Positions 9,783 to 49,489 of a stretch of DNA of 64,000 bases are shown one piece after another; position 1 is the first letter of the stretch, and every line of letters starts with the position of its first letter. The DNA is taken from positions 3,393,439-3,457,438 of the forward strand of contig OZ245326.1 of assembly GCA_965225915.1 (NCBI GenBank), given 5' to 3'. Below the pieces are notes generated by a model that was not told the origin of the DNA, searched no databases, and saw only the letters and a list, made by a program, of their open reading frames with translations. The translations under genes were made by a program, and so were the position numbers. The DNA comes from a bacterium (lineage in GTDB: Bacteria > JAAXHH01).

Positions 9783-11252
9783 TCACCCATCCCCCATGGC
9801 CTGTCGGATCGGATCCATCACGGGACGTACAATAGTATCCGGCGGCGGGGACGTGAAGAGCGATACGGCTATCCCCGTAACGGAACACGTCAGGAAACTC
9901 CAGGCGACGGGGATCAGTCCCGGATTCGGGAGCCATTCGTAGAACATGGCGATGAGCACGGCGTTACCGGCGATGATGGCCGTGATAGCGCCCGGCGCCG
10001 TAAACCGTTTCCAATGCAGGCCGAGCAACCAGATGGGCGTGAGCGTGACGAAACCGGAAAATGAAAGCTGGGCTATTGCGAAGATGGAATCCGGCCGGAG
10101 GATGACGATGTAGTAGGTGATACCGCCGAGGATAACGAGAAACAGCCTGCCCAGTACAACCTGCAAGCGCTGCGACAGGCCATACCATACATCTCGCGTA
10201 AGCATGGACGACAGCGTCAGCATCTGGGCGTCCAGCGTGGACATGACCGCTGCCAGGATACCGGCCAGCGCCAGTCCCTGGATCATGGGACCGAAATGGC
10301 TGCGAATCACCATGGGGAAGACCATGTCCGACTCCCGGCCCATAAAATCGGGAAACTCTATGCGTCCCCACACGCCGTAAAGCGTCGCCACCAGCATCAG
10401 TCCAATCATGATGACGGGATAGTACCGGATGGAGTTCTTCAATGATTTCACGTCTTTTGCGGCGAATACGCGAACCAGCAGGTGGGGGAAGGCGAGCACG
10501 ACCAATCCCATGGACATCCCCCACACGAACCACGCGCCCGTCGTGAAAGGAGGTGTGTCTTTCGTGGCCATCATTTCCGGAAACCGGCGGCCGACTTCCT
10601 TCATCACTCCGGATATACCGCCGAAGTCGGCGGCGACGGCGAAGATCGATACGTAGAGGAACACGCCGAACACGAGGCCCTGGAACACGTTGGTCCACAT
10701 GGTCGCCCGCATGCCGCCCGTTGTGGTGTATATCAGCGTGATGACCAGGATTCCCGCCGCCGCGGTCTCGAATGAGATCGCCTGCTGGGTGAATACGTCC
10801 ACGGCAAGTCCCACCCCGGCGACGCCGGTGGACATGTAGGGCAGCATGTAGATGAAATAGACCACGAAGAGAAGCCGGCCCAGGTTGGGGCTGTCCAGCC
10901 TGCGGGCGAGCAGTTCCGCGGGTGTCACGGCTTTCAATTTCCTGGACGCGATCCACGCAGGGTACCCGATGACGTAGTAGGCTACGGGAATGATGAGCGC
11001 CGCCATGGCCGCCGTGTAACCGAACACCCCGACGCCGTGATGGTAGGCCAGCCCCGAAATGCCCATGATCAGGAACGGCGTGATATTGGTGCCGAAAAGC
11101 GCCATGAACAGGACGAGCGACTTGGCGAGCCGGCCGCCGAGGAAGTAGTCTTCAGGCGTTGGAACGGAGCGGCGGAACGCGGCTGCTCCGATGCAGAGCA
11201 CCACGGCGAAGTATACCACCACCACGACGAATATGGTCGCTTCAGGCCCCAT
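9783..11252 (-). CDS. sodium:solute symporter (SSF) family transporter
   Basis: 489 aa with ~13 TM helices and SSF-family sequence features. It is preceded by a DUF3311-type small membrane protein. Confidence 0.9.
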   Translation of the reverse strand: MGPEATIFVVVVVYFAVVLCIGAAAFRRSVPTPEDYFLGGRLAKSLVLFMALFGTNITPFLIMGISGLAYHHGVGVFGYTAAMAALIIPVAYYVIGYPAWIASRKLKAVTPAELLARRLDSPNLGRLLFVVYFIYMLPYMSTGVAGVGLAVDVFTQQAISFETAAAGILVITLIYTTTGGMRATMWTNVFQGLVFGVFLYVSIFAVAADFGGISGVMKEVGRRFPEMMATKDTPPFTTGAWFVWGMSMGLVVLAFPHLLVRVFAAKDVKSLKNSIRYYPVIMIGLMLVATLYGVWGRIEFPDFMGRESDMVFPMVIRSHFGPMIQGLALAGILAAVMSTLDAQMLTLSSMLTRDVWYGLSQRLQVVLGRLFLVILGGITYYIVILRPDSIFAIAQLSFSGFVTLTPIWLLGLHWKRFTAPGAITAIIAGNAVLIAMFYEWLPNPGLIPVAWSFLTCSVTGIAVSLFTSPPPDTIVRPVMDPIRQAMGDG

Positions 11253-11454
11253 CGTAGTCCCGCCAGACGTATCGGGTGAAGTAGATGACCAGCGCGCCGG
11301 CGGCGATTACCCACGTGATATGGTATGCGAGATCGACTGGCAGCCAGCCGAACAGCAGCGGAGGCGTTGTTCCGTGGTTGAAGAAGTCGACGTGAAGCGC
11401 CGCCAACACGACCACGAGTAACCAGAATATCCGTCTATGCTGTCTTCGTGTCAT
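11242..11454 (-). CDS. DUF3311-like small membrane protein (YhdT-type partner of SSS transporters)
   Basis: 70 aa, two TM segments. It overlaps the start of the downstream symporter. Confidence 0.6.
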   Translation of the reverse strand: MTRRQHRRIFWLLVVVLAALHVDFFNHGTTPPLLFGWLPVDLAYHITWVIAAGALVIYFTRYVWRDYDGA

Positions 11455-11521
11455 ATCCGGTCTGTCCGGTCAGTCTCGACGGGTTCGGGCGCTTGCGGCG
11501 AAGGGGTTCACGTGGCGGAAA

Positions 11522-12889
11522 TCATGGTCCGGTCGATTCCGAGGCGCCGCTCAGCTTGCCGATGTACCGGCGGGTTTCCGCGGCAACGATGGGAGACAGG
11601 AAAAGCAGGCCAACCAGGTTGGGAAAGGCCATGAGCCCGTTCATGATATCGGAAACTCCCCAGACCAGTTCCAACTCGGAGATGGCGCCGATACCGACGA
11701 AGAGGCAGAACAGCGAACGGTACGGCAGGGCGGCGCGTTCACCGAGCAGGTAAACGAAGGACTTCTCGCCGTAGTAACTCCAGCCCAGGATGGTCGAGTA
11801 TGCGAACAGCACGAGTCCCAAGGCGACAAGATGACCACCGAATCCTCCAGGGAGTCCGGTGGTGAAAGCGGCGGCCGTGAGCGACGCGCCGGTGTCGCCC
11901 GACAACCAGACACCCGTCCCGATGATGGTGAAACCGGTGATCGTGCACACGACCAGGGTATCGATGAAGGTCTGCGTCATGGATACCAGGGCCTGGGTGA
12001 CGGGATCTTTGGTCTGGGCGGCCGCGGCGGCAATACCCGCGCTACCCAGTCCGGATTCGTTGGAGAATATCCCCCTTGCCACCCCGAACTGGACCGTCTG
12101 GCGGACCATCGCGCCTGCGAAGCCACCGGCGGCCGCGGCCGGCGTGAAGGCGTGCGTGACCACGAGTTCGAAGATACCCGGAATTGCGGAGGCGTTCATC
12201 AATATGGCCGTCAACCCGCCGATGATATACAGGACGATCATCGTGGGGACGATGAAGCTTGCCGCCCGGCCGATGCTCTTGATCCCGCCGATCAGTACCA
12301 GGCCCGTTCCGACCATCAGTACCCCGCCGGTGATCCAGGGGGACACGCCAAAGGTGCTCTGGAGCACGTCGGCCATGGAATTCGACTGGGTCATGTTGCC
12401 GATGCCAAAGGCCGCCAGGGCCGCAAAAAGCGCATAGGCGCCGCCGAGCCATTTCCAGCCCAGCGCGTTGGTGATGTAGTACATGGGACCGCCCTGCATG
12501 AGTCCCTTCGAATCCTTCTCGCGGTACTTGACGGCCAGGACGGCTTCCGAGTACTTGGTGGCCATGCCCACCAGTCCCGTCATCCACATCCAAAACAACG
12601 CGCCCGGACCTCCGGCCGCGATGGCCGTGGCCACGCCGGCGATATTTCCCGTACCTACCGTTGCCGCGAGGGCGGTCATCAGGGCCTGGAAATGGCTGAT
12701 ATCCCCTTCGGCATCCGCCTCCCGGCGGCGTACCAAAGCCAGGTACAGCGCGTGGAACAGGGAACGGAACTGCACGCCTTTCAGCAGTACCGTGAGATAG
12801 AGTCCCGTACCGCCCAGCAGCACCAGCATGGGCAATCCCCATACGTAGCCCTGAACGGTACTGACTAAGTCAAACATCGTGTTTTCCAT
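11522..12889 (-). CDS. alanine/glycine:cation symporter (AGCS) family transporter
   Basis: 455 aa. AGCS-like motifs [12 protein letters not shown] and [10 protein letters not shown]. Confidence 0.9.
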
Positions 12890-13100
12890 GAGGTGTTCCG
12901 TGTGAAGGTGAAGGGGCGGACAACGAAGGCCAACGTAAGATCACGCCGGAACGTATGTCAAGCACTTTCCATTTTCTTACTTGATCTTTAACCTCCCCCT
13001 TCATATAGTGAGCCATCGCCGGATATCGCCCCCAGGGGCCGGGCCGGTCTCCCAACCTACATTGTCAGAACGACCCTATATCATCTGAGGATCATTTTAC

Positions 13101-14090
13101 ATGTCAAGACTCCGTATTGGCATAGCAGGCGCCGGCGGTATGGGCGGCCACCATGCCAGGATGCTGTCCGCTCGCGACGATGCCCAGGTCGTGGCGCTGT
13201 TCGATACCGACCCGGTGGCGATGAACCGCCTGGAAAAGACCCTCGGACCTACGGTTCAGGGCTTGAATCACTATGGTACTTTAGCGGCCATGATCGAATC
13301 GGAACAAATGGACGGGGTCGTTATCGCGACGCCCCACACCCGGCACGCGGACCAGGTCCGGACCAGCCTGGAGGCGGGACTGCACGTCCTGGTAGAGAAA
13401 CCCATGGCGACGACGACGCGGGACGCCAGGGATTTCATCGACTATTCAGAAAGGGCCGGCAAGGTGCTTGCGGTCGCCTATCAGCGGCATGGCGAGGGCA
13501 AGTTCATCAAGGCCCGCGAGATGATCGGGAACGGAGTCATCGGCGACGTGCGGCTCGTACACGTCATCATCGCCCAGGACTGCCTGGGAATCTTCAGTCC
13601 CGGCGCTTCATGGCGTGCCGATCCTGAGCTTTCCGGCGGCGGCCATTTCATGGACACGGGCAGCCACATCAATGACATTTTACTGTGGACAACCGGCCTG
13701 GAACCCATGTCAGTTCATGCCTTCATTAACCCCGAAGGCACCCTGGTCGACGTGAATACGGCCATCTCGGTCAAGTTCACCAACGGCGCCGTCGGCAACC
13801 TGTCCTACACGTCCATGTCGCCCGAATGGCGGGAAGAGTTTACCTTTTACGGCACGGAAGGCGTCATGCGTTTCGGCGCGTCGGAACCCCTGTTTGTCCA
13901 CCGCAACGGGGAAGACATTCGGTTGCCTCGGACCCCAGGCCGGGGGAAACCGCCGGCCGATAATTTCATCGAGGCCATCCTGGGCGAGGCGGAAGTGCAG
14001 GCTCCGCCCATTTGCGGCCTGCGAGTGGTGCAGTTGACCGAAGCGGCCTACAAATCGGCCGAAAGTGGAAAACCCGAGACGGTTGGCTGA
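13101..14090 (+). CDS. Gfo/Idh/MocA family oxidoreductase
   Basis: N-terminal Rossmann motif IGIAGAGGMGGHHA and the EKP motif. Confidence 0.85.
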   Translation: MSRLRIGIAGAGGMGGHHARMLSARDDAQVVALFDTDPVAMNRLEKTLGPTVQGLNHYGTLAAMIESEQMDGVVIATPHTRHADQVRTSLEAGLHVLVEKPMATTTRDARDFIDYSERAGKVLAVAYQRHGEGKFIKAREMIGNGVIGDVRLVHVIIAQDCLGIFSPGASWRADPELSGGGHFMDTGSHINDILLWTTGLEPMSVHAFINPEGTLVDVNTAISVKFTNGAVGNLSYTSMSPEWREEFTFYGTEGVMRFGASEPLFVHRNGEDIRLPRTPGRGKPPADNFIEAILGEAEVQAPPICGLRVVQLTEAAYKSAESGKPETVG

Positions 14091-14116
14091 TCGAGACAGA
14101 AAACTAATCACCGAGG

Positions 14117-15589
14117 ATGAAAATGAAAGATCCAGAAGTAAACGGCTGTCCCCTGTTTATAAACGGAAACTGGACCGCCGCGCCCGGCGTTGAAACGGAA
14201 CCGGTATTCAATCCTTCGGACGGCAGTGTCATAGCCAGAACACCCATGTGCGGCGAGGCCGAGGTCGATTCGGCGGTTCAAGCCGCCCGGGCGGCCTTTC
14301 CCGATTGGTCCGTCACCCCGGTCATCGACCGCGCAAGGATCCTGTTCCGGTACGTACATCTCCTTGAAGAGCAATTCGAGGAACTGTCCCGCCTGGTAAC
14401 CCGGGAGCACGGCAAAACGCTGGAAGAGGCACGGGGATCCGTACGCCGGGGCATCGAAGTCGTGGAGTTTGCCTGCGGAGCGCCCACGCTGCTCATGGGC
14501 GATTCCCTCGAACAGATCGCCAGCGGCATAGATTGCGACACCATCCGCCAACCCGTGGGGGTATGCGCGGGAATTACCCCGTTCAACTTCCCTGCCATGG
14601 TGCCCATGTGGATGTATCCCATTGCGATCGTCTGCGGCAACACCTTCGTGCTCAAACCGTCCGAAAAAGTGCCGTTGACCGCCATACGGCTCGTGGAACT
14701 GTTGCAGGAAGCCGGTCTGCCGCCCGGGGTGATGAACCTGGTCCACGGCGGCGTGGACGTGGTCAACGCCCTTTGCACCCATCCGGGTATCGATGCCGTG
14801 TCTTTCGTCGGATCGTCACCCGTGGCGAGACACGTCTACCAGACCGCAACCGCCCACGGCAAGCGCGTGCAGGCCGCCGGCGGCGCAAAGAACTACATGG
14901 TCATCCTGCCCGACGCGGACCCCGCTTTCACGGTGGATGCGCTGGTCGGTTCGGTATACGGTTGCGCCGGGGAGCGGTGCATGGCCGGCAGCGTGGCCGT
15001 GGCCGTTGAGGAAGCCGCCGAGCGCGTACTGCCCCCGCTGCGTGATGCCCTCGATGAAATGAAAGTCGGACCGACGGATCGCAACCCGGAGGTGGACATG
15101 GGACCGGTGGTCACCCGCCAGCACCTCGACCGGGTACACGACTACATCGCGTCCGGCTTGTCGGATGGGGCTTCGCTCTATCGCGACGGCCGGGGTGTGG
15201 AAGTGCCGGAAACTCCCGACGGATTCTACATGGGACCCACCATATTCGACGCCGCCGCCACCAGCATGAAGATCGTTCGCGAAGAGATCTTCGGTCCGGT
15301 CCTGTCCGTGATACGCACCGATAGCCTGGACGAGGGGATCGATGCCTGCAACCAGAGCGGTTTCGGAAACGCCGCGGTCCTGTTCACAGGTGACGGCAAG
15401 TCCGCCAGGACCTTCAGACACCGGGTCAGCGCCGGGATGGTGGGCATCAATGTCGGCGTGCCGGCACCCATGGCGTTTTTCCCGTTTTCGGGTTGGAACG
15501 GCTCGTTTTTCGGCGATCTTCACGTCCAGGGCAAGGAAGGATTCGCTTTCTATACCCGTCAAAAGGTCACGATGAGCCGATGGGCTTGA
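14117..15589 (+). CDS. mmsA: CoA-acylating methylmalonate-semialdehyde dehydrogenase
   Basis: 490 aa ALDH superfamily with MmsA/IolA-type sequence (GITPFNFPAMVPMWM, FVLKPSEKVP, catalytic Cys in GERCMA). Confidence 0.9.
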   Translation: MKMKDPEVNGCPLFINGNWTAAPGVETEPVFNPSDGSVIARTPMCGEAEVDSAVQAARAAFPDWSVTPVIDRARILFRYVHLLEEQFEELSRLVTREHGKTLEEARGSVRRGIEVVEFACGAPTLLMGDSLEQIASGIDCDTIRQPVGVCAGITPFNFPAMVPMWMYPIAIVCGNTFVLKPSEKVPLTAIRLVELLQEAGLPPGVMNLVHGGVDVVNALCTHPGIDAVSFVGSSPVARHVYQTATAHGKRVQAAGGAKNYMVILPDADPAFTVDALVGSVYGCAGERCMAGSVAVAVEEAAERVLPPLRDALDEMKVGPTDRNPEVDMGPVVTRQHLDRVHDYIASGLSDGASLYRDGRGVEVPETPDGFYMGPTIFDAAATSMKIVREEIFGPVLSVIRTDSLDEGIDACNQSGFGNAAVLFTGDGKSARTFRHRVSAGMVGINVGVPAPMAFFPFSGWNGSFFGDLHVQGKEGFAFYTRQKVTMSRWA

Positions 15590-23136: not shown

Positions 23137-24189
23137 CTAGCAGGCGGTTTCCGGATCGGTTCCACTTTTTCGGACGGGAAGTGTCGACCGAACCGAGCTG
23201 TCTGACAGTAAGGAGAAAGCCTGTTGCATATCATCGGGCACGGGTACCCTGAACGTGTGGATCAGTCCCGAGTAGGGATGGACAAACTCCAGCCTCGATG
23301 CATGCAGCGCCTGCCGCCGCAGGACATCCAGCATCATTCTCAATCCGGGACGGCGCTGGGGCGCAATACGCGCCAGCCACTTGACCCTGCCTCCGTAAAG
23401 GGGGTCTCCGATGATGGGATGACCTATATGGGCCAGGTGAACCCGGATCTGATGGGTGCGCCCGGTTTCCAACGCCAGGGAAAGTAACGTCCCGTCCTCC
23501 ATTGCGTCGCTCACCCGGAAATGGGTGACGGCCCTGCGACCGTGACCCGCCTCGACCACGGCCATCCGCTGCCTGTACCTTGGATGCCGTCCGATCGGGG
23601 CGTCGATCGAACCGGAAGTCTCCGCGGGACATCCCCAGACCAGGCCCGTATATCCGCGTTTGATGCGGCGCTCGGCCAGCTGGCGGGAAAGAAACGCGTG
23701 GGCGTCTTCACGTTTCGCCACGATGATCAGGCCGGATGTTTCCTTGTCCAACCGGTGTACAATGCCCGGCCTGACGGGATCTTCGAAATTTTTCAGGTGC
23801 TCGCAGTGGTGCAAAAGCGCGTTTACCAACGTCGACCTGGTATGGCCGCAAGCGGGATGTACGACCATACCTGCCGCCTTGTTCACGACCAGGAGCGCCT
23901 CGTCTTCGTAGACAATATCCAACGGAATGGATTCCGGTTCGATATTGGAAGGAGGGGGCGCTGGCACGACAACGGTGACTATGTCGCCTTCGGACACCTT
24001 GTGACTGCTCTTTTCGACGACAATCGCATTTACCGAAACCGCGCCTTCCCGAATCCACCGCTGGATTCGGGACCTTGTGACGGGCAGGTCCGTTTCCGCA
24101 AGATATTGATCCAGGCGCCTCAGCGACTGTTCGGAGGGCACCACGGTCTGGACGAAGGAACCCTCCCGTTCACCCGGAAGGCGCTTCAT
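23137..24189 (-). CDS. rluD: RluA-family 23S rRNA pseudouridine synthase (RluD-like)
   Basis: N-terminal S4 domain and catalytic motif HRLDKETSGLIIVAK. Confidence 0.85.
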   Translation of the reverse strand: MKRLPGEREGSFVQTVVPSEQSLRRLDQYLAETDLPVTRSRIQRWIREGAVSVNAIVVEKSSHKVSEGDIVTVVVPAPPPSNIEPESIPLDIVYEDEALLVVNKAAGMVVHPACGHTRSTLVNALLHHCEHLKNFEDPVRPGIVHRLDKETSGLIIVAKREDAHAFLSRQLAERRIKRGYTGLVWGCPAETSGSIDAPIGRHPRYRQRMAVVEAGHGRRAVTHFRVSDAMEDGTLLSLALETGRTHQIRVHLAHIGHPIIGDPLYGGRVKWLARIAPQRRPGLRMMLDVLRRQALHASRLEFVHPYSGLIHTFRVPVPDDMQQAFSLLSDSSVRSTLPVRKSGTDPETAC

Positions 24190-24664
24190 CGTTCATGATC
24201 CGGCTTATGGCGGACAGTCGAGTGAAGAGCACGATAATTCCGATGGTTACGGCGGAGTCCGCCACGTTGAAAACGGGCCATCGGTACGCTCCTACACCTA
24301 TATCGATGAAATCCGTCACCTCGCCGTAGAGCACGCGATCGACCAGGTTCCCGAACGCGCCTCCCAGTATGATCATCATGGCGTACCGCCCCCATCTCTC
24401 GGTGGGCGGAAGTTTGACGAGGTAATAGATCATCACGATACAGGCAATGATCGACAGAACCAGATAGAGCCAGCGGCCGCCGATCGTTATTCCGAAAGCG
24501 GCGCCGGGATTTCGAATGTGCGTCAACTGGACCACATCCCCCAGGAGGGGATAGGACAGGTGCAGCGTCATCCACTGCTGAACGGCGATCTTCGTAATCT
24601 GGTCCAGGATCAGGATACCTGCGCAGACGACGATCGACTTTGTTAATGGGTGCTGTCCAATAAT
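24170..24664 (-). CDS. lspA: lipoprotein signal peptidase II
   Basis: NPGAAFG, FGNLVDR and FNVADS motifs. The ORF track starts at an internal Met (24571). The in-frame extension ...IIGQHPLTKSIVVCAGILILDQITK is typical LspA N-terminus but has no ATG/GTG/TTG, so I place the start at ATT 24664. That start is uncertain. Confidence 0.8.
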   Translation of the reverse strand: MIGQHPLTKSIVVCAGILILDQITKIAVQQWMTLHLSYPLLGDVVQLTHIRNPGAAFGITIGGRWLYLVLSIIACIVMIYYLVKLPPTERWGRYAMMIILGGAFGNLVDRVLYGEVTDFIDIGVGAYRWPVFNVADSAVTIGIIVLFTRLSAISRIMNDEAPSG

Positions 24665-24665
24665 G

Positions 24666-25052
24666 TTAGATCAAACCTCGCTCTTCCTTGGATTTACATT
24701 CTATGCACATCCGGGCATGGGGAACGGCCTCGAGGCGGGTCTTGCCGATTTCACCATTGCATGCGTAACAGCTACCGTAGGCGCCGTTCTTAATGCGTTC
24801 CAGGGCTTCGTCGATATGAAAAAGGAACCTGCCTTCGCGTGAAGCCAGGTCATAGGCCTGTTCCTGCTCCATGGATTCGGTGCCCTGGTCCGCCGGGTGT
24901 TCCGAAAAGGGATAACTGCCCGCAACATCACGGGCCTTGGAGTTAATCATCTTTTCCCCGAAATACCCCAGTTCATGCAACAGCGTTTCGCGTTTTTCGA
25001 GCAAGAGCTTTTCGAATCGCTTCAAATTTTCACCCGTCATCCATACCTCCAC
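24666..25052 (-). CDS. TraR/DksA-family C4 zinc-finger regulator (YlyA-like)
   Basis: CYACNGEI...CIECKSK zinc finger. Its position immediately upstream of lspA-rluD matches the Bacillus ylyA-lspA-ylyB arrangement. Confidence 0.8.
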   Translation of the reverse strand: MEVWMTGENLKRFEKLLLEKRETLLHELGYFGEKMINSKARDVAGSYPFSEHPADQGTESMEQEQAYDLASREGRFLFHIDEALERIKNGAYGSCYACNGEIGKTRLEAVPHARMCIECKSKEERGLI

Positions 25053-38886: not shown

Positions 38887-39999
38887 CTACATCCTGTCGT
38901 TTCTGACCTGAATGGATTCACCGTTCACCAGGTTTCTATGGCCGATGATAATCAGGGAATCGCCAGCCGCCAGTCCCCCGGAAACCAGTACCTGATCACC
39001 CGAGATCGATCCCAGGGTAACCGGCACGGACCGGGCAACGTTGTTGTCCGCGACGAAGACCATCCGACCCTGATCGGTGTCGATCACGGCGTCCTGGGGA
39101 ATAACAATCGCCTGGGGTATGTAGTCCTTGACGACTCGGATCGTGACAGCCATTTCGGGCTTCAGTCTGTGCTCCGGGTTGTCCAGTGTGATTTCAACGG
39201 ATAAGGTACGATTGTCCGGGTCGAGCGTCGTTCCGATATAGGTTATATCTTCCTCGAGACTCACGTCAGGGTAGGCCGGAAAAGTCAGCGTCGCCCGCGT
39301 ACCTTCCTTGACGTGTTTGAGATGACGCTCCGGGACACCGGCCACGACCTTGACGCGATCGATATCGACCAGGTCCACCAATTCCCTTCCAGGGGTGGCC
39401 AGTTCACCCACTTCCATTTTGCGACTGTCCACCACGCCCGAGATCGGCGCCCGGATGACCGTCTTGCTCAAGTAGACCATGGCCTGGTCATGCCGCGCAC
39501 GATCCATGTCATGACGGTACTTGGTGTCGAGGTACACGGATTCGGCCAGTGCGTGCTGGTCCAATAACCTTTTCTGGTTACGCAGCGTAAGGCCGCTGGC
39601 GTTCAGCGCCGCTTCAGCCTCATCCGCGGCGGCTTTGAGCAATTCATCATCCATCCGCGCCAGCACGGTGTTTTGCTGCACCAACTGGCCCTTTTCCACA
39701 TCAATGCTCTCTACCAGCCCACTTGCTTCGATACTCACCACCACCCGGCGAAGTGGTTTGACTACACCGACCAGCCTGAGATGGTTGGTGAAGTCCTGGG
39801 GTTGAACCACCCGGGTGACCACGTTCACGGTCCGCTTTTCCTTCTCAACGGTCGCTTCGTTGGCGGCACTGCCGCTTTCACTACAGCCCGTCGACACCAG
39901 TACGCTTGCCAGGCATGCTATCGGTGCGCACCATTTCAATACGCAGAAGATCATCAAATACGAGCTCCTTAACGATTTAACACTGCTCCAAGCCGCCAA
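38887..39999 (-). CDS. RND efflux periplasmic adaptor (membrane fusion protein)
   Basis: 370 aa with a signal/lipobox, coiled-coil hairpin and HlyD-like barrel. Confidence 0.85.
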   Translation of the reverse strand: MAAWSSVKSLRSSYLMIFCVLKWCAPIACLASVLVSTGCSESGSAANEATVEKEKRTVNVVTRVVQPQDFTNHLRLVGVVKPLRRVVVSIEASGLVESIDVEKGQLVQQNTVLARMDDELLKAAADEAEAALNASGLTLRNQKRLLDQHALAESVYLDTKYRHDMDRARHDQAMVYLSKTVIRAPISGVVDSRKMEVGELATPGRELVDLVDIDRVKVVAGVPERHLKHVKEGTRATLTFPAYPDVSLEEDITYIGTTLDPDNRTLSVEITLDNPEHRLKPEMAVTIRVVKDYIPQAIVIPQDAVIDTDQGRMVFVADNNVARSVPVTLGSISGDQVLVSGGLAAGDSLIIIGHRNLVNGESIQVRNDRM

Positions 40000-40144
40000 T
40001 GTCGCCTTGCCTGGCCGGCAAAAAATCTGAATTACGTAATATCAGTAGAACCTTCAAGTACACGTATACCACGCAGGAACGGACACCATTCAAAAAATCG
40101 TTGGTGGTATTGAACGTTGAAACCTTCGATTCCGCGGAATCTCC

Positions 40145-41362: not shown

Positions 41363-42276
41363 GTCCGCGACCGATCTCAGGTCGACCCGGTCGGGGTAGA
41401 TCAGCGCGATGAGATCCTCGATATCGAATGATTCCAATAGACCGAAACAGAAAAGAGACGACATGGATTCATACCGTCCGGGTTCATCGATTAACCGGCA
41501 CAGGCTGCTCAATCCCTGCTGCAGAACGACTTCATCCACATCTCCGTCATACAGGGCCGAGGCCATGAGGGCAACAACGGAAGACACGGGCCCGCAGGCG
41601 GTCAAGTCCAGCTCGGGCGTTCCCACGTGGTTCATGACCGCCGCGAGTTGAGCAACCTGGATACCCAGCATCCTGCCGCCGCTCGATGATACCATCATCG
41701 TCCACTGATGCGGAGCCTTGCCCAGTTCGCACGCTCCCTGCATGATCAATTCGACCGACAGCGCCGTAGATCCTTCACGCAGGACTTCCTCTATCAGGGA
41801 CTCCGCTCGGGATTCAGGGCCACCATGCCCCTCCTGGCCAGGTTGATGCATCGCACCTGCTTGTAGTCCACCGCTTTTCCCGGTGGTCCGACGTGCCCGT
41901 TCAAGTTCAGTACACCCGGTGTTGTATCCTCGAGACGTTCGGGTTCATAGAGCAGGGCTGGAATGAACAGACCGGGCAAAGCCTTGTAGGTCAGCTTGCG
42001 AATCCGGTAGCCCTTGCCGGTATCGATGACCTCCTTCCATTCGATTTCAAGATCGTCCGATCTCCATTCTTCGGGAACACCCTTTAAAACCACCTTATCC
42101 AGCATGATCCGGCGCAACCGCTCGGCTTCGTCTTCCCAGGTGTCGGAATCGAGAAGCCTGAATTCGGGTATGCGGCCAAGCAGATAGGCCTTCAGCATCT
42201 CCACGGTGTGGAGTACCCGGAACGAAGGTGTTGACTGCAGTTCGGACATGCCGGCAGGCAAGGCGATGGCATTCAT
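41357..42276 (-). pseudogene. alpha/beta hydrolase (acetylxylan-esterase/peptidase-like) split into two overlapping ORFs
   Basis: ORFs 41794..42276 and 41357..41851 are in different frames and overlap by ~58 nt. Together they resemble one ~320-aa esterase (GVLNLNGH ... VSSSGG ... FCFGLLESFD). This looks like a frameshift or an assembly indel. Confidence 0.4.
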
Positions 42277-42730
42277 CGGTGCGGTTCCTCTTGTAGATCA
42301 CGCTCAATATCAGAATGGGTACTCGAAAGTGGTTGCATGCGCACTTCCACGTCGATCTGGATATCTCCCCCACCGTGCAGCACCCCCGTTGTGGGGGAAA
42401 CGTCCTGGTAGTCCCTACCCACGGCAACGCGTACATGCCGCTTGTCGACGAAGGTCGAATTGGTGGGATCGAATCCGACCCAACCGAGTCCGGGTAACAG
42501 GCATTCCAGCCAGGCGTGCGTGGTCATCCCCCTGTTTTCCGCATTTTTCGCCGTTTCATCGTGGAGATATCCCGATACGTACCGGGCCGGAATACCCTCA
42601 GGTTCGCGCGATGGCGATCATGACATGGGCGTAGTCCTGGCATACGCCGCGTCCTGTATCCAGAATGTGGTCTATGGTGGAAGAGATTGATGTGCTGCCC
42701 GGTACATACTCAAATCTAGTGAAGATGATT
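42273..42730 (-). pseudogene. transglutaminase-like cysteine protease remnant (N-terminus deleted, internal stop/frameshift near 42600)
   Basis: Manual translation gives [50 protein letters not shown] and then, after a frame change, EGIPARYVSGYLHDE...MTTHAWLECLLPGLGWVGFDPTN...GRDYQDV. That is the catalytic Cys/His/Asp core of the TG-like partner of CP-ATP-grasp operons. Confidence 0.6.
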
Positions 42731-43974
42731 TCAGACAGCCGCTTCAGCGAAACTACCGGATCGGAGGCGGGCTCGATCCCGTTTCACGATGAGATCCTGC
42801 AGGTTGTCCAGCGTGAATTCGAGATCTTCCGGCGGTCGGCAGATATAGGTTTTCACGTTTTGAAGCAACGGTTCTTCGCCCAGGTAATAGCGTATCATGT
42901 CCGGCACGAATGCATATACGCTCTTATCGTCCGCAACGCCTGTACCCGGCGCGTTGACCAGGGTCACATTTCCGGCCTTGTAAACGCTCATCAGACCGGG
43001 CAGACCCAGGAGGGAGTCGGATCGAAAGACGAGGGGATCCAGGAAATCGTCGTCAACGCGGCGATAGATGACGTCCACACGGCGCAGACCCGACGTAGTG
43101 CGCATGTACACGTAATCCTCGTCAACCAGCAGGTCCCTACCTTCGATAAGGGTCGCTCGATCTCGTGGGCCAGATAAATGTGTTCATAAAACGCGGCATT
43201 GAATACACCTGGAGTCAGGAGTACCACGCATGGGTCCGGATGATCGCGAGGCGCGAGTTCGTGCAACATTTCCCGAAGCAGACCGCCGTAATGCTCGACC
43301 TCCTGGACCCGGCAACTGCGATACAACCTTCGTAGATTGATCTTGATAGCTTTCCGGTTAGCGACCATGTAGGACACTCCGGAGGGCACGCGCAGGTTGT
43401 CCTCGAGTACGTGGAACCCTTCATTCGTGCGCACCAGGTCGGTTCCGCAGACCGCGACGTGCGTACCATGAGGTACGGGCACTCCCCGCATTTCCACGCG
43501 GTACTGGGGACATCCCCTAACCATTTCGATGGGAATGACTCCGTCTTCAACGATACGCGCGGGTCCGTAGACATCGGCAAGGAACCGGTTCAATGCCTTC
43601 AAGCGCTGGGAAAGTCCCGCTTCGAGCTGCCGCCATTCACTCGCGGAAATGATCCGGGGCAGACAGTCGACCAGCATGATACGCTCGTTGGCCACCTCGT
43701 CGCCGTAAACCGTAAACGTGATGCCTTCACTGGAAAAGGAATGATTAACCCGTTCCTGCATGCGAACGAGTTCTTCAACGGGAAGGCGGAGCAGGGCTTC
43801 GTAGAGATAACGGCAATGATCGCGAGGCGTGCCGTCGGGCAGGAACATCTCGTCGTAGAAAGCGTTCTCCAGTTCGTACGTTTCGAAATCCATAACAAGG
43901 CTCCGTTCCGGGATCCAGCGCGATCCTTGTCCTGGAACCGTAAGACGGGAAGCAGGCGGAAGGGGTTCCGACAT
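42731..43974 (-). pseudogene. circularly permuted ATP-grasp type 2 protein, frameshifted (~43155..43165) and C-terminally truncated
   Basis: ORF 42991..43974 and ORF 42731..43111 are consecutive parts in different frames. The junction reads ...YLAHEIE|[21 protein letters not shown].... The protein stops ~100 aa early at ...[20 protein letters not shown] and runs straight into the TG-like remnant. Confidence 0.7.
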
Positions 43975-44261
43975 ACCTTACTCATGCTTTCCATTTTATA
44001 CCATGTTATATTTGGCAGCACAACAGATAATCTCAATAGATCTGGCGTAAGTCTGGTGGCAGAAAAAGCGATATGGTAAGGCCTACGGCTGTTTAGTATT
44101 CATGAAGATGTTACAATGTTTTCTGATTGCACTTTGCTCATGCGTCGGTATCTTTCCCTGTAAGTCCAGCCAGGCCGATCCGTGTTCTGTTTGACGAAAT
44201 ACAATACCTTACTTTAACAGCCTGATATTTCCGCGTTTAAATCACGGCGGGAGGCGGTTTA

Positions 44262-46208
44262 ATGGTCATCGAGTTTGTGAATCTACTCACCGCATACTTC
44301 GATTTCATCTGGTTGTCCTTCCTGTTGCTGGCCCCCATGTTGATTCTGGGTCTGCTGCTTTCCGGCCTGATTCATGTTTTCATATCACGCGAAGCCATAT
44401 TGAAATGGCTCCAGGACGACAGTCTCAGGTCGGTAAGCGTGAGCGCCGGGGTCGGCGTTCCTGTGCCGCTGTGCAGTTGCTCCGTTGTTCCGATTGTAGC
44501 GGAAATGCGGCGGAAAGGCGCATCGCGTTCCTCCTGCATGTCGTTCCTGATCACGGCCCCGGAAACCGGGGCGGATTCGATTCTCGTTACCAACGCGTTC
44601 TTCGGGATCGTCGTAGCCTTGATTCGACCCGTCATCAGTTTTATTACCGCGGTCGTGGCGGGTATCTTTTGCATCGGCCTGATCAGAGATGATAACGGCG
44701 AAGCCAGGACGGGCGACCATGACCACCGCGATCACCGCGATCATGACCACCATGATCACGTGCACGACCAATGTCATGGACACGACCATGCGGCTCATGA
44801 AACCCTCCTGTTCGAAAGGGACGATTGCTACGTCAGCCCTTCCGCCATGAAGATACTGATGGCAAGGTGGCTTAAAGGGATATCGACCGTCGCTTCCATA
44901 CGGAGGTTCGGATCGTGGGTTAAACCGGACTTCTATCGCGAACTGAATGAGGCGCAGCAGCAAAAAGTAGCAAAAACCTCCAAAGAAGATATCGTCGAAG
45001 AAGAATATCCCGGTCTCGACTTCAAGAAGATCGTCCAGCATATCATGCGATACGGCTTCGTGGAAATCGCTGACGATATCCTCTTCGCCCTGATCGTCGG
45101 CATTGCGCTGGGCGGCGTGCTCATTCTTGCCCTTCCAGCCGACATGATGTCTAACGAATACGCGCGATGGCTATCCTATCCCATCATGATCCTCGTTGGC
45201 GTGCCCCTTTACATCTGTGCCTCGGCCAGCACACCAATAGCCGCCGCGCTGGTGGCCAAGGGATTCAGCCCGGGTGCCGCCCTGATTTTCCTGATGACCG
45301 GGCCAGCCACCAACACGAGCACGATCGCGATTATCATGAGCCAGTTCGGTGCGCGATTCGCGGCCGTGTACGTTACTTCGATCATCGTGGTAACCGCCAC
45401 CCTGGGTATCGCCATCGACATCATGCTCCTGGCCACGGGATTGGCGGTTACCGTCAATCTGGGTCCGTCCGAATCCCCAACCCTTCAGTTTCTGCAATGG
45501 GGCGGCGCCTTTGCTTTGCTCGGGCTCATTATCTGGAGGTTTCGGGCCGGCGCCATGCGCAGCGGGTTCGAAGACCTAATGCTCAATATCCGTCCCCTAA
45601 CCAGGCCCTGGCTGCGAGTCTGGAAGCGTCTGACGCGGAACCGGTCCATTCGCAGCATGATATCGCCTTCCACCCCTTGGGGAATGATGCTGTACGGTTT
45701 GTTCCTGGTGCTCTTTCTGGGAAGCGGTTTCACGGTTGTGCCTCCAGGGCATGTCGGGTATGGCCGACTCTTCGGCGAAGTCTACTGGAAAGACCTGCAA
45801 CCGGGACTGCATTATCTCGCTCCGCGTCCCCTGGCCCTCGTCGACAAGTGGCCGGTTGCCGAAGTCAAATCCATCATGTCCGAATCGCCCTATGAATACG
45901 TTTCAGGCGACCTGAGCAAGCTTTCGCTCACCCTGGACGTACAGTACCGGGTAAAAGATCCCTACACGTACCATTACAACACGACCGATCCCGAAGAGAT
46001 CATCGAGGGCGCCGTCCGGGAGCACGTGCGCACGTTCATAAACGCCCACGATCTCGACTGGTTGCTCACCGCCTACCGTTCGGACCTGGAGAAAGAAATC
46101 ACCGAACTTTTCCGCCAGGACGTCCTCCCGGATGGATATGAACCGGTACTTGGCACCGTGGACCTGGTGAAGGTCAGCCTGCTTTGTATCAGTCCAGCCG
46201 AGGAATAG
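44262..46208 (+). CDS. DUF318/ArsP_1 (SO_0444-like Cu/Zn efflux) permease with His/Asp-rich loop, fused to a partial SPFH (band-7) domain
   Basis: PLCSCSVVP CxC motif. The loop DHDHRDHRDHDHHDHVHDQCHGHDH is metal-binding in character. The C-terminal ~160 aa (VVPPGHVGYGRLFGEVYWKDLQPGLHYLAP...VQYRVKDP) is the N-terminal half of an HflK/C-type SPFH domain. Confidence 0.7.
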   Translation: MVIEFVNLLTAYFDFIWLSFLLLAPMLILGLLLSGLIHVFISREAILKWLQDDSLRSVSVSAGVGVPVPLCSCSVVPIVAEMRRKGASRSSCMSFLITAPETGADSILVTNAFFGIVVALIRPVISFITAVVAGIFCIGLIRDDNGEARTGDHDHRDHRDHDHHDHVHDQCHGHDHAAHETLLFERDDCYVSPSAMKILMARWLKGISTVASIRRFGSWVKPDFYRELNEAQQQKVAKTSKEDIVEEEYPGLDFKKIVQHIMRYGFVEIADDILFALIVGIALGGVLILALPADMMSNEYARWLSYPIMILVGVPLYICASASTPIAAALVAKGFSPGAALIFLMTGPATNTSTIAIIMSQFGARFAAVYVTSIIVVTATLGIAIDIMLLATGLAVTVNLGPSESPTLQFLQWGGAFALLGLIIWRFRAGAMRSGFEDLMLNIRPLTRPWLRVWKRLTRNRSIRSMISPSTPWGMMLYGLFLVLFLGSGFTVVPPGHVGYGRLFGEVYWKDLQPGLHYLAPRPLALVDKWPVAEVKSIMSESPYEYVSGDLSKLSLTLDVQYRVKDPYTYHYNTTDPEEIIEGAVREHVRTFINAHDLDWLLTAYRSDLEKEITELFRQDVLPDGYEPVLGTVDLVKVSLLCISPAEE

Positions 46209-46364: not shown

Positions 46365-47225
46365 GTGGAATCCAATACGATTCTTCATTTGCTGGGTTAC
46401 TCCGCGGCCATATTTGCCGTGTCCATGCTGGGCGGAAAACTCTCGGCCATCGTGACCTTGACGCACACGCGCACGCAACTGGTCATGAGTCTCGTGGCGG
46501 GGTTTCTCCTGGGCGTCGCCATGTACCACCTCCTGCTGCACAGCATAGAAGACATCCCCGGTCCTTACGCCGCTGAAACCGCCATTGGGTGTGCCGTACT
46601 CGGGATCATCGTGATTGTCGTCATGTTGCGCATATTCCGTTTTCACCAACACGATATCAGTCACGAAGCGATGGAAATGAACGATGACCATCACGGCACG
46701 GTAGATGTAAATCCACGAAGCGTATTCGGCATCGCGCTGGGCCTGGGCCTGCACACTGTTACAGAGGGGATCGCCCTGGGGGCCAGTGTGCGAATTGGTG
46801 TTCTGCATGACGGGGAAGCCGTTCTGGCTGGCCTCGGCGTGTTTCTGGCGATCATGGCTCACAAACCCCTTGATGCATACTCCATCATCGGTTTGATTAG
46901 AGCAACCGGTTACAGTAACCGCTCTTGCACCCTGACCAATATCGGTTTCGCCCTGTTGTGTCCGGTGGTCGCGGTATTGACCTTCCAGGGCGTGGGACTG
47001 CTCAACCAGTTGGAAGAGTTGCATATCGTAGGGTACATCATGGCCTTCGCCGCCGGCGTTTTTCTTTGTATATCCCTCGGTGACCTGTTGCCCGAAATCC
47101 AGTTCCACAGTCACGACCGTGGCATTCTTGCCGTAGCTTTCCTCCTGGGGATCGGTCTCGCTTACGCGCTGTTCTTCTTCGAATCCGACGCCACGCATGG
47201 GTTGAAAAACGGTGTTTTGCATTAG
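46365..47225 (+). CDS. ZIP family divalent metal transporter
   Basis: 286 aa, 8 TM. His-rich loop HQHDISHEAMEMNDDHHG and the ZIP motif HxxxEG (LHTVTEGIALG). Confidence 0.85.
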   Translation: MESNTILHLLGYSAAIFAVSMLGGKLSAIVTLTHTRTQLVMSLVAGFLLGVAMYHLLLHSIEDIPGPYAAETAIGCAVLGIIVIVVMLRIFRFHQHDISHEAMEMNDDHHGTVDVNPRSVFGIALGLGLHTVTEGIALGASVRIGVLHDGEAVLAGLGVFLAIMAHKPLDAYSIIGLIRATGYSNRSCTLTNIGFALLCPVVAVLTFQGVGLLNQLEELHIVGYIMAFAAGVFLCISLGDLLPEIQFHSHDRGILAVAFLLGIGLAYALFFFESDATHGLKNGVLH

Positions 47226-47251: not shown

Positions 47252-49489
47252 ATGTCGATTTCCAAGCCAACCATGGATTTCGACGTGGATACTGAAACTC
47301 GGGTATTCCACGTAGAGGGCATGACCTGCAGTGCCTGTTCCGCTCGGGTCGAAAAGGTGCTCGCCAGCGTACCTGGCGTATCCGCCGCCCACGTAAACCT
47401 CGCCCTGGAACGGGCTACCCTGACCGTGCTACCGTCTGTAAAGCAGGAATCGCTGACCGGTTCCGTGGCCGACGCTGGATTTCGACTTACCACCGGCCCC
47501 GCCGATCGAACCAGATCAGAAACCGATCGAATCCTGGGTAGCAGAGACCGCATCGCGATGGTCGTCTCGGTCGCCTTAACGCTTCCGTTTCTTGTTCAGA
47601 TGATTGTGGGATTGCTGCAAGGCTGGACCGGTTTCAGCTGGCACATGCCGGTATATGCGGAAGCAGCCCTGGCTACCGTCCTGCAGATCGCCATCGGAGC
47701 GCGTTACTACAGGAGCGGTTTCTACGCGCTCCGCGGCGGCGGCGCTAACATGGATGTCCTGGTCTCCCTGGGCACCACATCGGCCTACGCATTCAGCTGG
47801 TACCTCGTGCTTACCCTGGGCGCCGACGCCGCGGGGCAACTCTACTTTGAAGCCTCGGCAATCATCATTACCCTCGTGCTGATCGGCAAGCATATCGAAA
47901 CCCGTGCGCGGCGCAGCGCGGGCCGGGCGATACGCGAGCTGCTGGCCATCAGGCCCGAGACCGCACGGGTGCGGACGACCGACGGCACGGAAGAGGAACG
48001 CCCCGTGCACGCGTTGAAGACCGGAGACGTTGTGATCTGCCGTCCCGGTGACCGGGTGGCCGCCGACGGTGTTGTAATTCTCGGAGAAACCGAAATCGAC
48101 GAGGCGCTCATCACCGGCGAAAGTACCCCCGTACAGAAATACCCTGGAGACCTCGTGATCGCCGGATCGGTTAATCTCAATGGTTTCGTGGAAATAGAAG
48201 CCCGCGCTATCGGAAGCGAATCAACCCTTGGGCGGGTGATACGCCTGGTCGAAAACGCTCAGGCCGCCAAACCCGAGATACAGCGAATAGTGGATCGGGT
48301 CAGCGCAGTCTTCGTACCTGTCGTGGTCTTACTGGCCGTAATCACGCTCGCCGCGTGGATCTTGATGGGAGTGACACTGGAAACTGCGTTGATCAATGCC
48401 GTTTCCGTGCTCGTTATCGCGTGTCCCTGCGCCCTGGGCTTGGCTACGCCGACTGCTATCGTAACGGGCGCCGGAGCGGCGGCACGGGCGGGTATACTGG
48501 TCAAGGACATCGAATCCCTGGAACAGGCGAAAGGCCTGACCCACGTGGTTTTCGATAAGACGGGGACTCTGACCGAGGGCAAACCCCGTATCGCATCCGC
48601 CATCCCCCTGGCCAAACGCGACGAGAACGATCTTCTGCGTGTCGCGGCGTCGCTGCAACAGGGCAGTGAACACCCCTTTGCCACCGCGTTTCAGCACATG
48701 GCGACGGAACGAAAACTGGTCCTTACCCGGGTGGAGCGCTTCAGGAATCTCGTAGCCCGGGGCGTCGAGGGAGATATCGAAGGCGTGCGATACTTGCTGG
48801 GAAATCAAAAACTCTTCGAAGAGGCATGCCATACCCCTCCACCGCCCGCTGCTCCCCAGTCCGGAGGTGTCACCGTGGTTTGGCTGGCCTCCCGCGGAGA
48901 ATCAGGATGCAATTACCTTGCCCGCTTCGAACTCGTCGACGCATTGAGACCCGATGCGGCCGAGGTGGTTGAGGAGCTCAGGAGGCTGAACGTCAAGGTT
49001 CTTCTGGTTTCCGGCGATTCTGAATCCGTCGTGAAGCGGATCGGCCGGCAGACGGGCATTGACGAAACGCACAGCGGCGCTACGCCGGAAGAGAAGGAGC
49101 GTATCGTCGGGCAACTGATGGAAAGCGGTGCGAAGGTCTGCATGGTCGGCGACGGGATTAACGACGCACCCGCGCTCGCCCGGGCCACCGTGGGTATAGC
49201 CATGGGCTCCGGTACGGACGTGGCGATGGAAACGGCTGCTATCACGCTGATGAGACCCGATCCCTTCCTGGTGGCCGGCGCGATCGACGTGAGTCGAAGA
49301 ACCATCCGCAAAATCAAGCAGAATCTCTTCTGGGCGTTTATCTACAACGTGATCGGACTGCCGCTTGCTGCGATGGGGTTTCTCTTCCCTGCCGTAGCCG
49401 CGGCCATGATGGCCTTCTCCAGTATCAGCGTGGTCCTGAACTCGCTGATGCTCCGGTCATGGAAACCGCGGGAACTTAAAAGAATTTAG
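47252..49489 (+). CDS. heavy-metal (Cu+-type, CopA-like) P1B-type ATPase
   Basis: N-terminal HMA domain MTCSACSARVE. TM6 CPCALGLATP, DKTGTLT, SEHPFA, TM7 YN and TM8 MAFSS are CopA-type signatures. Confidence 0.9.
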   Translation: MSISKPTMDFDVDTETRVFHVEGMTCSACSARVEKVLASVPGVSAAHVNLALERATLTVLPSVKQESLTGSVADAGFRLTTGPADRTRSETDRILGSRDRIAMVVSVALTLPFLVQMIVGLLQGWTGFSWHMPVYAEAALATVLQIAIGARYYRSGFYALRGGGANMDVLVSLGTTSAYAFSWYLVLTLGADAAGQLYFEASAIIITLVLIGKHIETRARRSAGRAIRELLAIRPETARVRTTDGTEEERPVHALKTGDVVICRPGDRVAADGVVILGETEIDEALITGESTPVQKYPGDLVIAGSVNLNGFVEIEARAIGSESTLGRVIRLVENAQAAKPEIQRIVDRVSAVFVPVVVLLAVITLAAWILMGVTLETALINAVSVLVIACPCALGLATPTAIVTGAGAAARAGILVKDIESLEQAKGLTHVVFDKTGTLTEGKPRIASAIPLAKRDENDLLRVAASLQQGSEHPFATAFQHMATERKLVLTRVERFRNLVARGVEGDIEGVRYLLGNQKLFEEACHTPPPPAAPQSGGVTVVWLASRGESGCNYLARFELVDALRPDAAEVVEELRRLNVKVLLVSGDSESVVKRIGRQTGIDETHSGATPEEKERIVGQLMESGAKVCMVGDGINDAPALARATVGIAMGSGTDVAMETAAITLMRPDPFLVAGAIDVSRRTIRKIKQNLFWAFIYNVIGLPLAAMGFLFPAVAAAMMAFSSISVVLNSLMLRSWKPRELKRI

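Follow-up and report, generated by a model that had tools for sequence, protein, structure and literature searches.

We consider here a stretch of 64,000 nucleotides from an uncultured bacterium (contig OZ245326.1 of assembly GCA_965225915.1, positions 3,393,439 to 3,457,438; the whole stretch is called the window), in which positions 43893-41357 on the minus strand contain the stumps of three genes, coding for a circularly permuted ATP-grasp protein, a transglutaminase-like cysteine peptidase and an alpha/beta-hydrolase. In intact relatives the ancestral order of four genes is seen, namely the circularly permuted ATP-grasp, Alpha-E, the transglutaminase-like cysteine peptidase and an alpha/beta-hydrolase of 637 amino acids (aa), and the alignment against these relatives reveals two deletions and two single-base frameshifts in the window's copy. 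We consider it very probable that the locus is the dead remnant of this four-gene operon.

The six-frame translation of 44100-42200 already shows, on the minus strand, an ATP-grasp frame that changes near 43160 and reaches a stop at 42733-42731, followed by a transglutaminase-like frame that changes near 42600 and ends at 42275-42273. At the nucleotide level the alignment of the window with the relatives breaks at two junctions only, with the flanks and the gene order as in the relatives' loci L001-L014. Against L001, which serves as the reference below, the blastn segments are window 43935-42778 with L001 9957-11117, window 42785-41807 with L001 12811-13803, and window 41806-40143 with L001 14783-16464, and the same break points are obtained with 12 further relatives.

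The intact operon in relatives

The survey covered 83 loci, three fetched earlier (L001, L002 and L003) and 80 from GTDB species representatives. The ATP-grasp gene is full-length in all 83 of them, Alpha-E lies after it in 79 and the transglutaminase gene is present in 64. Among the GTDB species representatives the best match to the ATP-grasp is 88% identical in aa. In the 13 closest relatives (L001-L014 minus L005, which lies on a cut-off contig; 83-88% aa identity), the core trio is without exception intact, adjacent and in the same flanking synteny. In L001-L003 it codes for an ATP-grasp of 477 aa, an Alpha-E of 322 aa and a Bact_transglu_N plus Transglut_core protein of about 300 aa, to which a fourth protein of 637-648 aa is added except in L003. 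Upstream of the operon, in the window as in L001-L003, lie genes for an ArsP-type permease, a Zip protein, a P-type ATPase, a sensor kinase and a binding protein; downstream lie a GT9 glycosyltransferase gene on the opposite strand and genes for an RND membrane-fusion protein, an RND pump and an outer-membrane factor. The apparent lack of a transglutaminase gene in L002 is due to a scaffold gap of Ns and is no decay.

These relatives support what the initial annotation of this DNA had proposed, that is, that a once-complete ATP-grasp/Alpha-E/transglutaminase operon has decayed here. The core trio of that proposal stands, while the three-gene unit has to be extended, the ancestral unit of the clade having had four genes with the alpha/beta-hydrolase gene decayed too. 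The two frameshifts and the first deletion lie within the span 42273-43974 given there, and the decay goes on past 42273 into the next gene (42276-41357), where a second internal deletion is present.

It is noted that in more than 20 of the more distant relatives (L022-L024, L030, L032, L034, L036, L039-L043, L045, L049, L054, L058, L059, L068, L073, L076 and L077) Alpha-E lies about 1.5 kb further downstream of the ATP-grasp gene, with a start near 12,900, which implies an extra gene between the two and hence an architecture other than that of the window's clade. Note also that the ATP-grasp gene of L019 (10001-11426) and the transglutaminase gene of L072 (12413-13262) each align as two segments; these may be frameshifts, from independent decay or from assembly errors in those genomes.

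The closest relatives are metagenome-assembled genomes (MAGs) labelled Latescibacterota or Gemmatimonadota. The bins with the names IRC, COS, RHO and SB06xx are presumably sponge MAGs as well as those considered next. The 'jk18x...bins' MAGs come from Caribbean Ircinia sponges (PMC9531527), and the 'p16x...bins' MAGs, by their similar naming, probably come from the same study. At least four of the 13 closest relatives are MAGs from Ircinia sponges. Since the closest relatives are sponge MAGs, the source organism is probably a sponge-associated bacterium.

Lesions in the window's copy

The lesions were located by tblastn with the L001 proteins, the check that had been suggested for this region, by which the truncations, the frame changes and the absence of Alpha-E are all seen. 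For the ATP-grasp, residues 1-277 align with 43893-43075 and residues 247-372 with 43156-42779, the latter at 91% identity and in another frame. The remnant thus consists of part A (43893-43158, minus strand; codons 1 to about 245, with the ATG at 43893), the frame of which continues out of frame to a stop at 42993-42991, and of part B (43156-42779, minus strand; codons 247-372), the frame of which ends 16 codons past the first deletion junction at the stop 42733-42731. Together 43893-42779 represents residues 1-372 of 477, with residues 373-477 gone, so that the truncation of about 100 aa noticed before is in fact one of 105 aa. After repair of the frame, the translation matches Pfam CP_ATPgrasp_1 and CP_ATPgrasp_2 (PF04174 / PF14403) with E ~6e-125 and 417 bits, the cut-offs of the profiles being 23.1 and 32 bits, but it does not reach the ends of the profiles (aligned are 1-295 of 332 and 1-297 of 374, respectively); it has thousands of homologues, the best of which are 477 aa long and 86-88% identical. 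A complete ATP-grasp domain in one reading frame is therefore not present, as the frame is broken at codon 246 and residues 373-477 are deleted. A longer open reading frame (ORF) from the upstream ATG at 43974 was rejected as the true start, the extension having no counterpart in the homologues; the exact look-up of this 327-aa ORF gave no record, and gene callers report the 300-aa form from 43893.

Frameshift 1 lies at 43158/43157 (minus strand), in codon 246 of the ATP-grasp, where one base is missing from a Gly codon (GGN to G-A). In the nucleotide alignment with the 13 intact relatives, the relatives read GAGATCGGNGCGACC and the window reads GAGATCGA-GCGACC; at the site itself all relatives show GATCGGNGCG and the window GATCGA-GCG. 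The single-nucleotide frame change that had been suspected near 43160, with one extra base restoring the frame, is in this way verified and placed. In JGI metagenome contigs a pattern at frameshift 1 accepting either allele gave 0 matches.

Deletion junction 1 lies at 42785-42778 (minus strand), where one copy of the 8-bp microhomology GAAACGGG is left, and both L001 breakpoints (11110-11117 and 12811-12818) carry the same 8 bp. Relative to L001 the deletion amounts to about 1701 bp (11110 to 12811). It has taken away the C-terminal 105 aa of the ATP-grasp, the entire Alpha-E and the N-terminal 135 aa of the transglutaminase including Bact_transglu_N, and it joins the ATP-grasp and transglutaminase stumps out of frame. 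The junction had been placed at 42731-42745, which is only where the ATP-grasp frame first reaches a stop past the junction; the true position is about 45 bp upstream in gene orientation. By contrast, the reported absence of an Alpha-E gene holds, as no tblastn match to the L001 Alpha-E (PF04168) is found in the whole 64-kb window at E <= 1e-3. Deletion 1 may have arisen by slipped-strand or illegitimate recombination at the 8-bp repeat.

For the transglutaminase, residues 136-198 of L001 align with 42783-42595 at 79% identity and residues 198-304 with 42596-42276 at 71% identity in another frame. Part A of this remnant (42783-42599, minus strand; codons 136 to about 197) carries the catalytic Cys motif GVCQDYAH, and part B (42597-42273, minus strand; codons about 198-304, with the stop at 42275-42273) carries THAWLE (His) and FDPTN (Asp), all three motifs being visible in the repaired translation. 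The remnant as a whole (42783-42273) represents residues 136-304 of 304, and thus 135 N-terminal residues are missing rather than the roughly 100 estimated at first. The repaired translation matches Pfam Transglut_core (PF01841) with E 2.7e-24 and 86 bits (cut-off 23) over positions 18-108 of 108; the N-terminal Bact_transglu_N (PF08379), a start codon and a single frame are lacking.

Frameshift 2, at 42598 (minus strand), is one inserted base in the run TGGGGT, which is T on the plus strand and A on the minus strand. In the same 13-relative alignment the relatives all read CCTG-GGGT and the window reads CCTGAGGGT, that is, CCTG[A]GGGT on the minus strand. The second stop or frame change expected near 42600 is hence a 1-nt insertion. 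In this haplotype it splits the Cys motif from the His and Asp motifs.

The ATG of the hydrolase gene, at 42276, overlaps the stop codon of the transglutaminase gene (ATGA). The N-terminal remnant of the hydrolase (42276-41807, minus strand) holds residues 1 to about 162 of 637, of which residues 13-162 of the L001 hydrolase align by tblastn at 73% identity, and the C-terminal remnant (41806-41357, minus strand) holds residues 489-637 and the stop codon, at 74% identity by tblastn. Between them, at 41807/41806 (minus strand), lies junction 2, an out-of-frame deletion of about 979 bp relative to L001 (13804-14782) that removes residues 163-488, with the N-terminal frame stopping 3 codons past the junction at 41796-41794. 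In the intact L001 hydrolase, Pfam AXE1 and GCE_fung are just over their cut-offs and match in residues 194-251 only, so that deletion 2 takes the protein's only stretch that matches esterase/peptidase nucleophile-elbow profiles.

With these lesions it is unlikely that a working protein could be made from the remnant. The ATP-grasp lacks its last 105 residues even if the frameshift is read through, the 115-aa transglutaminase ORF of strains without frameshift 2 starts past the catalytic Cys, and the esterase-like core of the hydrolase is lost. The practical use of these results is mainly in annotation: the six or so short ORFs reported here by gene callers (300, 167, 84/115, 160 and 164 aa) all come from a single dead operon, as fragments or shadows of it, and belong under a pseudogene label.

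Recurrence of the lesions, age and alternative explanations

By exact-protein look-ups with the intact and the broken ORFs of the window, eight conspecific contigs from seven other assemblies were found, which are 99.2-100% identical to the window. They are L084 (Logan, ERR14231558), L085 (ERZ28763718, the 3.73-Mb contig ctg125316), L086 and L092 (both Logan, ERR14231557), L087 (ERZ23495085, SAMEA13322675), L091 (ERZ23495149, SAMEA13322674), and L088 (ERZ6111505) and L093 (ERZ6111309), both with SPAdes-style node names; the contigs follow at least three naming styles (MEGAHIT-like scaffolds, SPAdes NODE contigs, the 3.73-Mb contig and Logan contigs). A literature search for the sample accessions gave nothing. 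At frameshift 1 and at the two junctions, all contigs that extend over the site in question agree with the window letter by letter, as is the case for frameshift 1 and junction 1 in L084, L085, L086, L087, L088 and L091, and for junction 2 in L084, L085, L087, L091 and L092. Thus both deletions and frameshift 1 are fixed in every sampled strain. Frameshift 2 is polymorphic. It is present in the window, L091, L092 and L093 and not in L084, L085 and L087, that is, present in four assemblies, the window's included, and absent in three. Because it is shared by several assemblies and yet polymorphic, it is real, arose later than the other lesions and continues to segregate. A seemingly split GT9 gene in L087 was rejected as decay, being due to an N run only. 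Note also that no second copy of the operon is found within the 64 kb by tblastn, and that none of the best 120 database matches to the ATP-grasp lies on the 3.73-Mb conspecific contig, which is weak evidence against a paralogue.

The damage is confined to the operon as far as 64 kb can show. Over the approximately 20 kb with comparators, all flanking genes are full-length and in a single frame save the four operon genes, and elsewhere in the window long ORFs follow one another closely. The ORF-poor gap at 24189-25030 was tried as another pseudogene and rejected, since there are two short ORFs in it (133 and 128 aa), the products of which look by eye like a signal peptidase II and a DksA-type zinc-finger protein. 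Scans of the locus and its junctions gave no tRNAs, Rfam families, insertion sequence (IS) remnants or notable repeats, and the promoter and terminator scan of the locus gave nothing relevant.

When the two single-base indels are removed, the remnants read through 372 + 169 + 149 + 149 codons without any stop. To characterize the selection, pairwise Nei-Gojobori ratios of nonsynonymous to synonymous divergence (dN/dS) were calculated for the window against the intact orthologues and among the intact orthologues. They are 0.09-0.115 and 0.06-0.15, respectively, for the ATP-grasp, 0.15-0.30 and 0.13-0.30 for the transglutaminase, 0.29-0.36 and 0.20-0.30 for the hydrolase, and 0.19-0.27 and 0.20-0.31 for the intact GT9 control. 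With dN/dS unchanged and dS to the nearest relatives of about 0.5-1.0, depending on the gene, nearly all of the divergence has accrued under purifying selection; and with dN/dS unchanged and no other stops, the inactivation is taken to be recent. Relative to the split from the sister species the inactivation would be recent, but it would precede the last common ancestor of the sampled conspecific strains, which differ by about 0.2-0.8%. Within the species, the single-nucleotide polymorphisms (SNPs) in the transglutaminase and hydrolase stumps, read in the ancestral frames, are 8 nonsynonymous and 3 synonymous (n = 11, thus few), and the SNP density against L085 is 3.4 per kb in the remnants and 1.6 per kb in the flanks (binomial p = 0.04, on small numbers). 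Together with the segregating frameshift 2, this pattern fits ongoing neutral decay, with the smallness of the numbers to be kept in mind. A plausible course would be that one lesion inactivated the system, that the other genes were thereby freed from selection, and that further lesions then accumulated neutrally.

Three points weigh against this picture of a microhomology deletion followed by neutral decay. Firstly, the ancestral sequence at the breakpoints is derived from relatives that are only 75-84% identical in nucleotides, and therefore the exact length of the microhomology at junction 1 and any microhomology at junction 2 are uncertain. Secondly, the data give no order for the three fixed lesions. 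Thirdly, there is no SNP between the window and L085 over 42757-45657 (2.9 kb), which includes the ATP-grasp stump, and thus relaxed selection on this stump is not directly shown.

An alternative to neutral fixation is that the loss was selected, with frameshift 1 being favoured after deletion 1 because it silenced an orphan ATP-consuming ligase. That three disabling lesions are fixed in all sampled strains, that diversity is low around the ATP-grasp stump, and that a related Yersinia ATP-grasp alone releases phosphate from ATP (PMC6376114) all speak for it. However, neutral fixation by drift or by descent from a recent common ancestor accounts for the same data, and all 13 closest relatives, at least four of them from Ircinia sponges, keep the operon. 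Drift and selection are not separable on the present data, and we regard the selected loss as unlikely, albeit the most viable of the alternatives.

It is much less probable, indeed very improbable, that the pieces still function, whether by a programmed frameshift, as a stand-alone 300-aa N-terminal ATP-grasp fragment or as the 115-aa transglutaminase fragment. The 300-aa ORF is identical in five assemblies, and the ATP-grasp stump is free of SNPs against L085, L087 and L088, with many SNPs in the downstream stumps. Nevertheless, the SNP-free tract extends about 1.7 kb past the stump, through the intergenic region and into 1.4 kb of the next gene, and is for that reason read as a tract of low local diversity rather than as constraint on the stump; moreover, L091 has two more nonsynonymous SNPs within the stump (classified by hand), and constraint on the stump was thus rejected. 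A programmed frameshift would find no repeat or slippery run at frameshift 1 and would yield an ATP-grasp that lacks the last 105 residues (Pfam positions 296-332 and 298-374) and the partner Alpha-E, and the 115-aa ORF, as noted above, is without the catalytic Cys. As a separate observation, the tract 42757-45657 may reflect a recent recombination or sweep, the SNPs of L087, L088 and L091 being clustered at 44411-44744.

That the lesions are assembly or sequencing artefacts, with the indels as consensus errors, the junctions collapsed and the real operon intact with its Alpha-E, has virtually no chance of being true: the window is a single consensus sequence, and frameshift 2 is located within a run of G/C and is missing in three of the conspecific contigs, but frameshift 1 and junction 1 are identical in six contigs and junction 2 in five from different samples and assemblers, frameshift 2 recurs in three and, as a T within a C run, is no homopolymer-length error, neither frameshift site is a long homopolymer, and the flanking genes are intact. 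Misassembly, which the initial annotation itself had named as the finding that would overturn its interpretation, thus fails as far as assemblies can show, because independent conspecific contigs, eight in seven other assemblies, share the lesions.

The preferred explanation is therefore still that of a dead operon in continuing, essentially neutral decay. As such, the locus shows for at least one lineage that an operon which is widespread, yet without an explained function, can be lost, and it probably provides a clean case of microhomology-mediated deletion and continuing neutral decay that is caught early, with one lesion still polymorphic.

Neighbouring genes and comparison with known systems

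Several features beside the operon are noted in their own right. At 44262-46208 (plus strand) lies a gene for a 648-aa fusion of an ArsP_1-type permease and a Band_7/SPFH domain, the two being linked by a His-rich tract (HDHRDHRDHDHHDH...), the length of which differs by 6 bp at 44790 in L085 and L091. The orthologues of this gene in the relatives are 454 to 787 aa long, and with the 787-aa forms the alignment continues across the stop of the window's ORF. The gene adjoins those for a Zip protein (46365-47225) and an HMA P-type ATPase (47252-49489), which together look like a metal-handling cluster. On the other side, L085 has at 13910-15139 an insertion of 1230 bp with a DDE_Tnp_1 transposase between the GT9 and RND genes, which is not in the window (39977-39980); the alignments on its two sides overlap by 4 bp, which points to a target-site duplication, and thus IS elements are active in this species. 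In addition, the 7-bp AAAAAAT at 40020-40026, in the intergenic region of the RND membrane-fusion gene and GT9, is in the window only and absent from L084, L085 and L087.

According to the summary of Iyer et al. (2009) and Valas and Bourne (2008) given in PMC6376114, genes for an ATP-grasp, alphaE and a transglutaminase-like protein form an operon, usually followed by Anbu. The predicted activity of the system is the formation or modification of peptide or amide bonds. According to PMC6376114, the proposed roles of the operon are hypotheses without experimental confirmation. The intact relatives resemble this known operon in gene order and in the Pfam families CP_ATPgrasp_1/2, Alpha-E and Bact_transglu_N plus Transglut_core, and the window keeps recognisable stumps of its first and third genes. 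The window differs from it in that its copy is dead, with Alpha-E absent and the other two core genes truncated and frameshifted.

A further difference concerns the fourth position. Neither the window nor any of the relatives examined has an Anbu gene; its position is held in the closest clade by the alpha/beta-hydrolase, an intact orthologue of which (634-688 aa) lies directly after the transglutaminase gene in 12 of the 13 close relatives. The exception is L003, which at 83% aa is the most diverged of the clade; here a hydrolase gene is missing altogether and GT9 begins within about 20 bp of the transglutaminase gene (13331-13352). Operons with an intact core may thus have the fourth gene or lack it. 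Beyond this closest clade, no conserved gene is seen behind the transglutaminase gene, and the downstream genes of ten sampled distant relatives are those for ThiC, a methylase, a binding protein, an FAA hydrolase, or are without assignment, with no Anbu. It is conceivable, though on balance doubtful, that the hydrolase is a true fourth component of the ATP-grasp/Alpha-E/transglutaminase system, an analogous hydrolase in the place that Anbu takes in the canonical operon. The overlap of its start codon with the transglutaminase stop and the separate, independent deletion in the hydrolase point in this direction, and the latter suggests, as a small hint, that the hydrolase works with the core in this clade. 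If this proposal is true, the loss of part of the hydrolase in the one species with a dead core would speak for a functional dependence between them, and the locus would represent a natural, species-wide knockout of the operon.

In terms of structures, the L001 ATP-grasp matches PDB 3N6X ('putative glutathionylspermidine synthase', a circularly permuted ATP-grasp) over residues 13-475 with E 6e-156. The window's copy, by contrast, matches only to residue 372 and is frameshifted at 246, and the function of 3N6X is itself putative. Similarly, residues 150-264 of the L001 transglutaminase align with PDB 3ISR, a transglutaminase-like putative cysteine protease, with E 4e-10 and with the Cys, His and Asp regions included, whereas the window's copy has no residues 1-135.

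Finally, the locus is like the pseudogenes that arise in bacteria by microhomology deletions and frameshifts in having an 8-bp direct repeat, single-base indels, lesions clustered in one unit and, on few SNPs, a within-species ratio of nonsynonymous to synonymous changes that looks near-neutral. Nothing about it is unusual in this comparison, the decay being local and not genome-wide as far as the 64 kb shows, and what is left here is a commonplace set of pseudogenes from an operon of known type.

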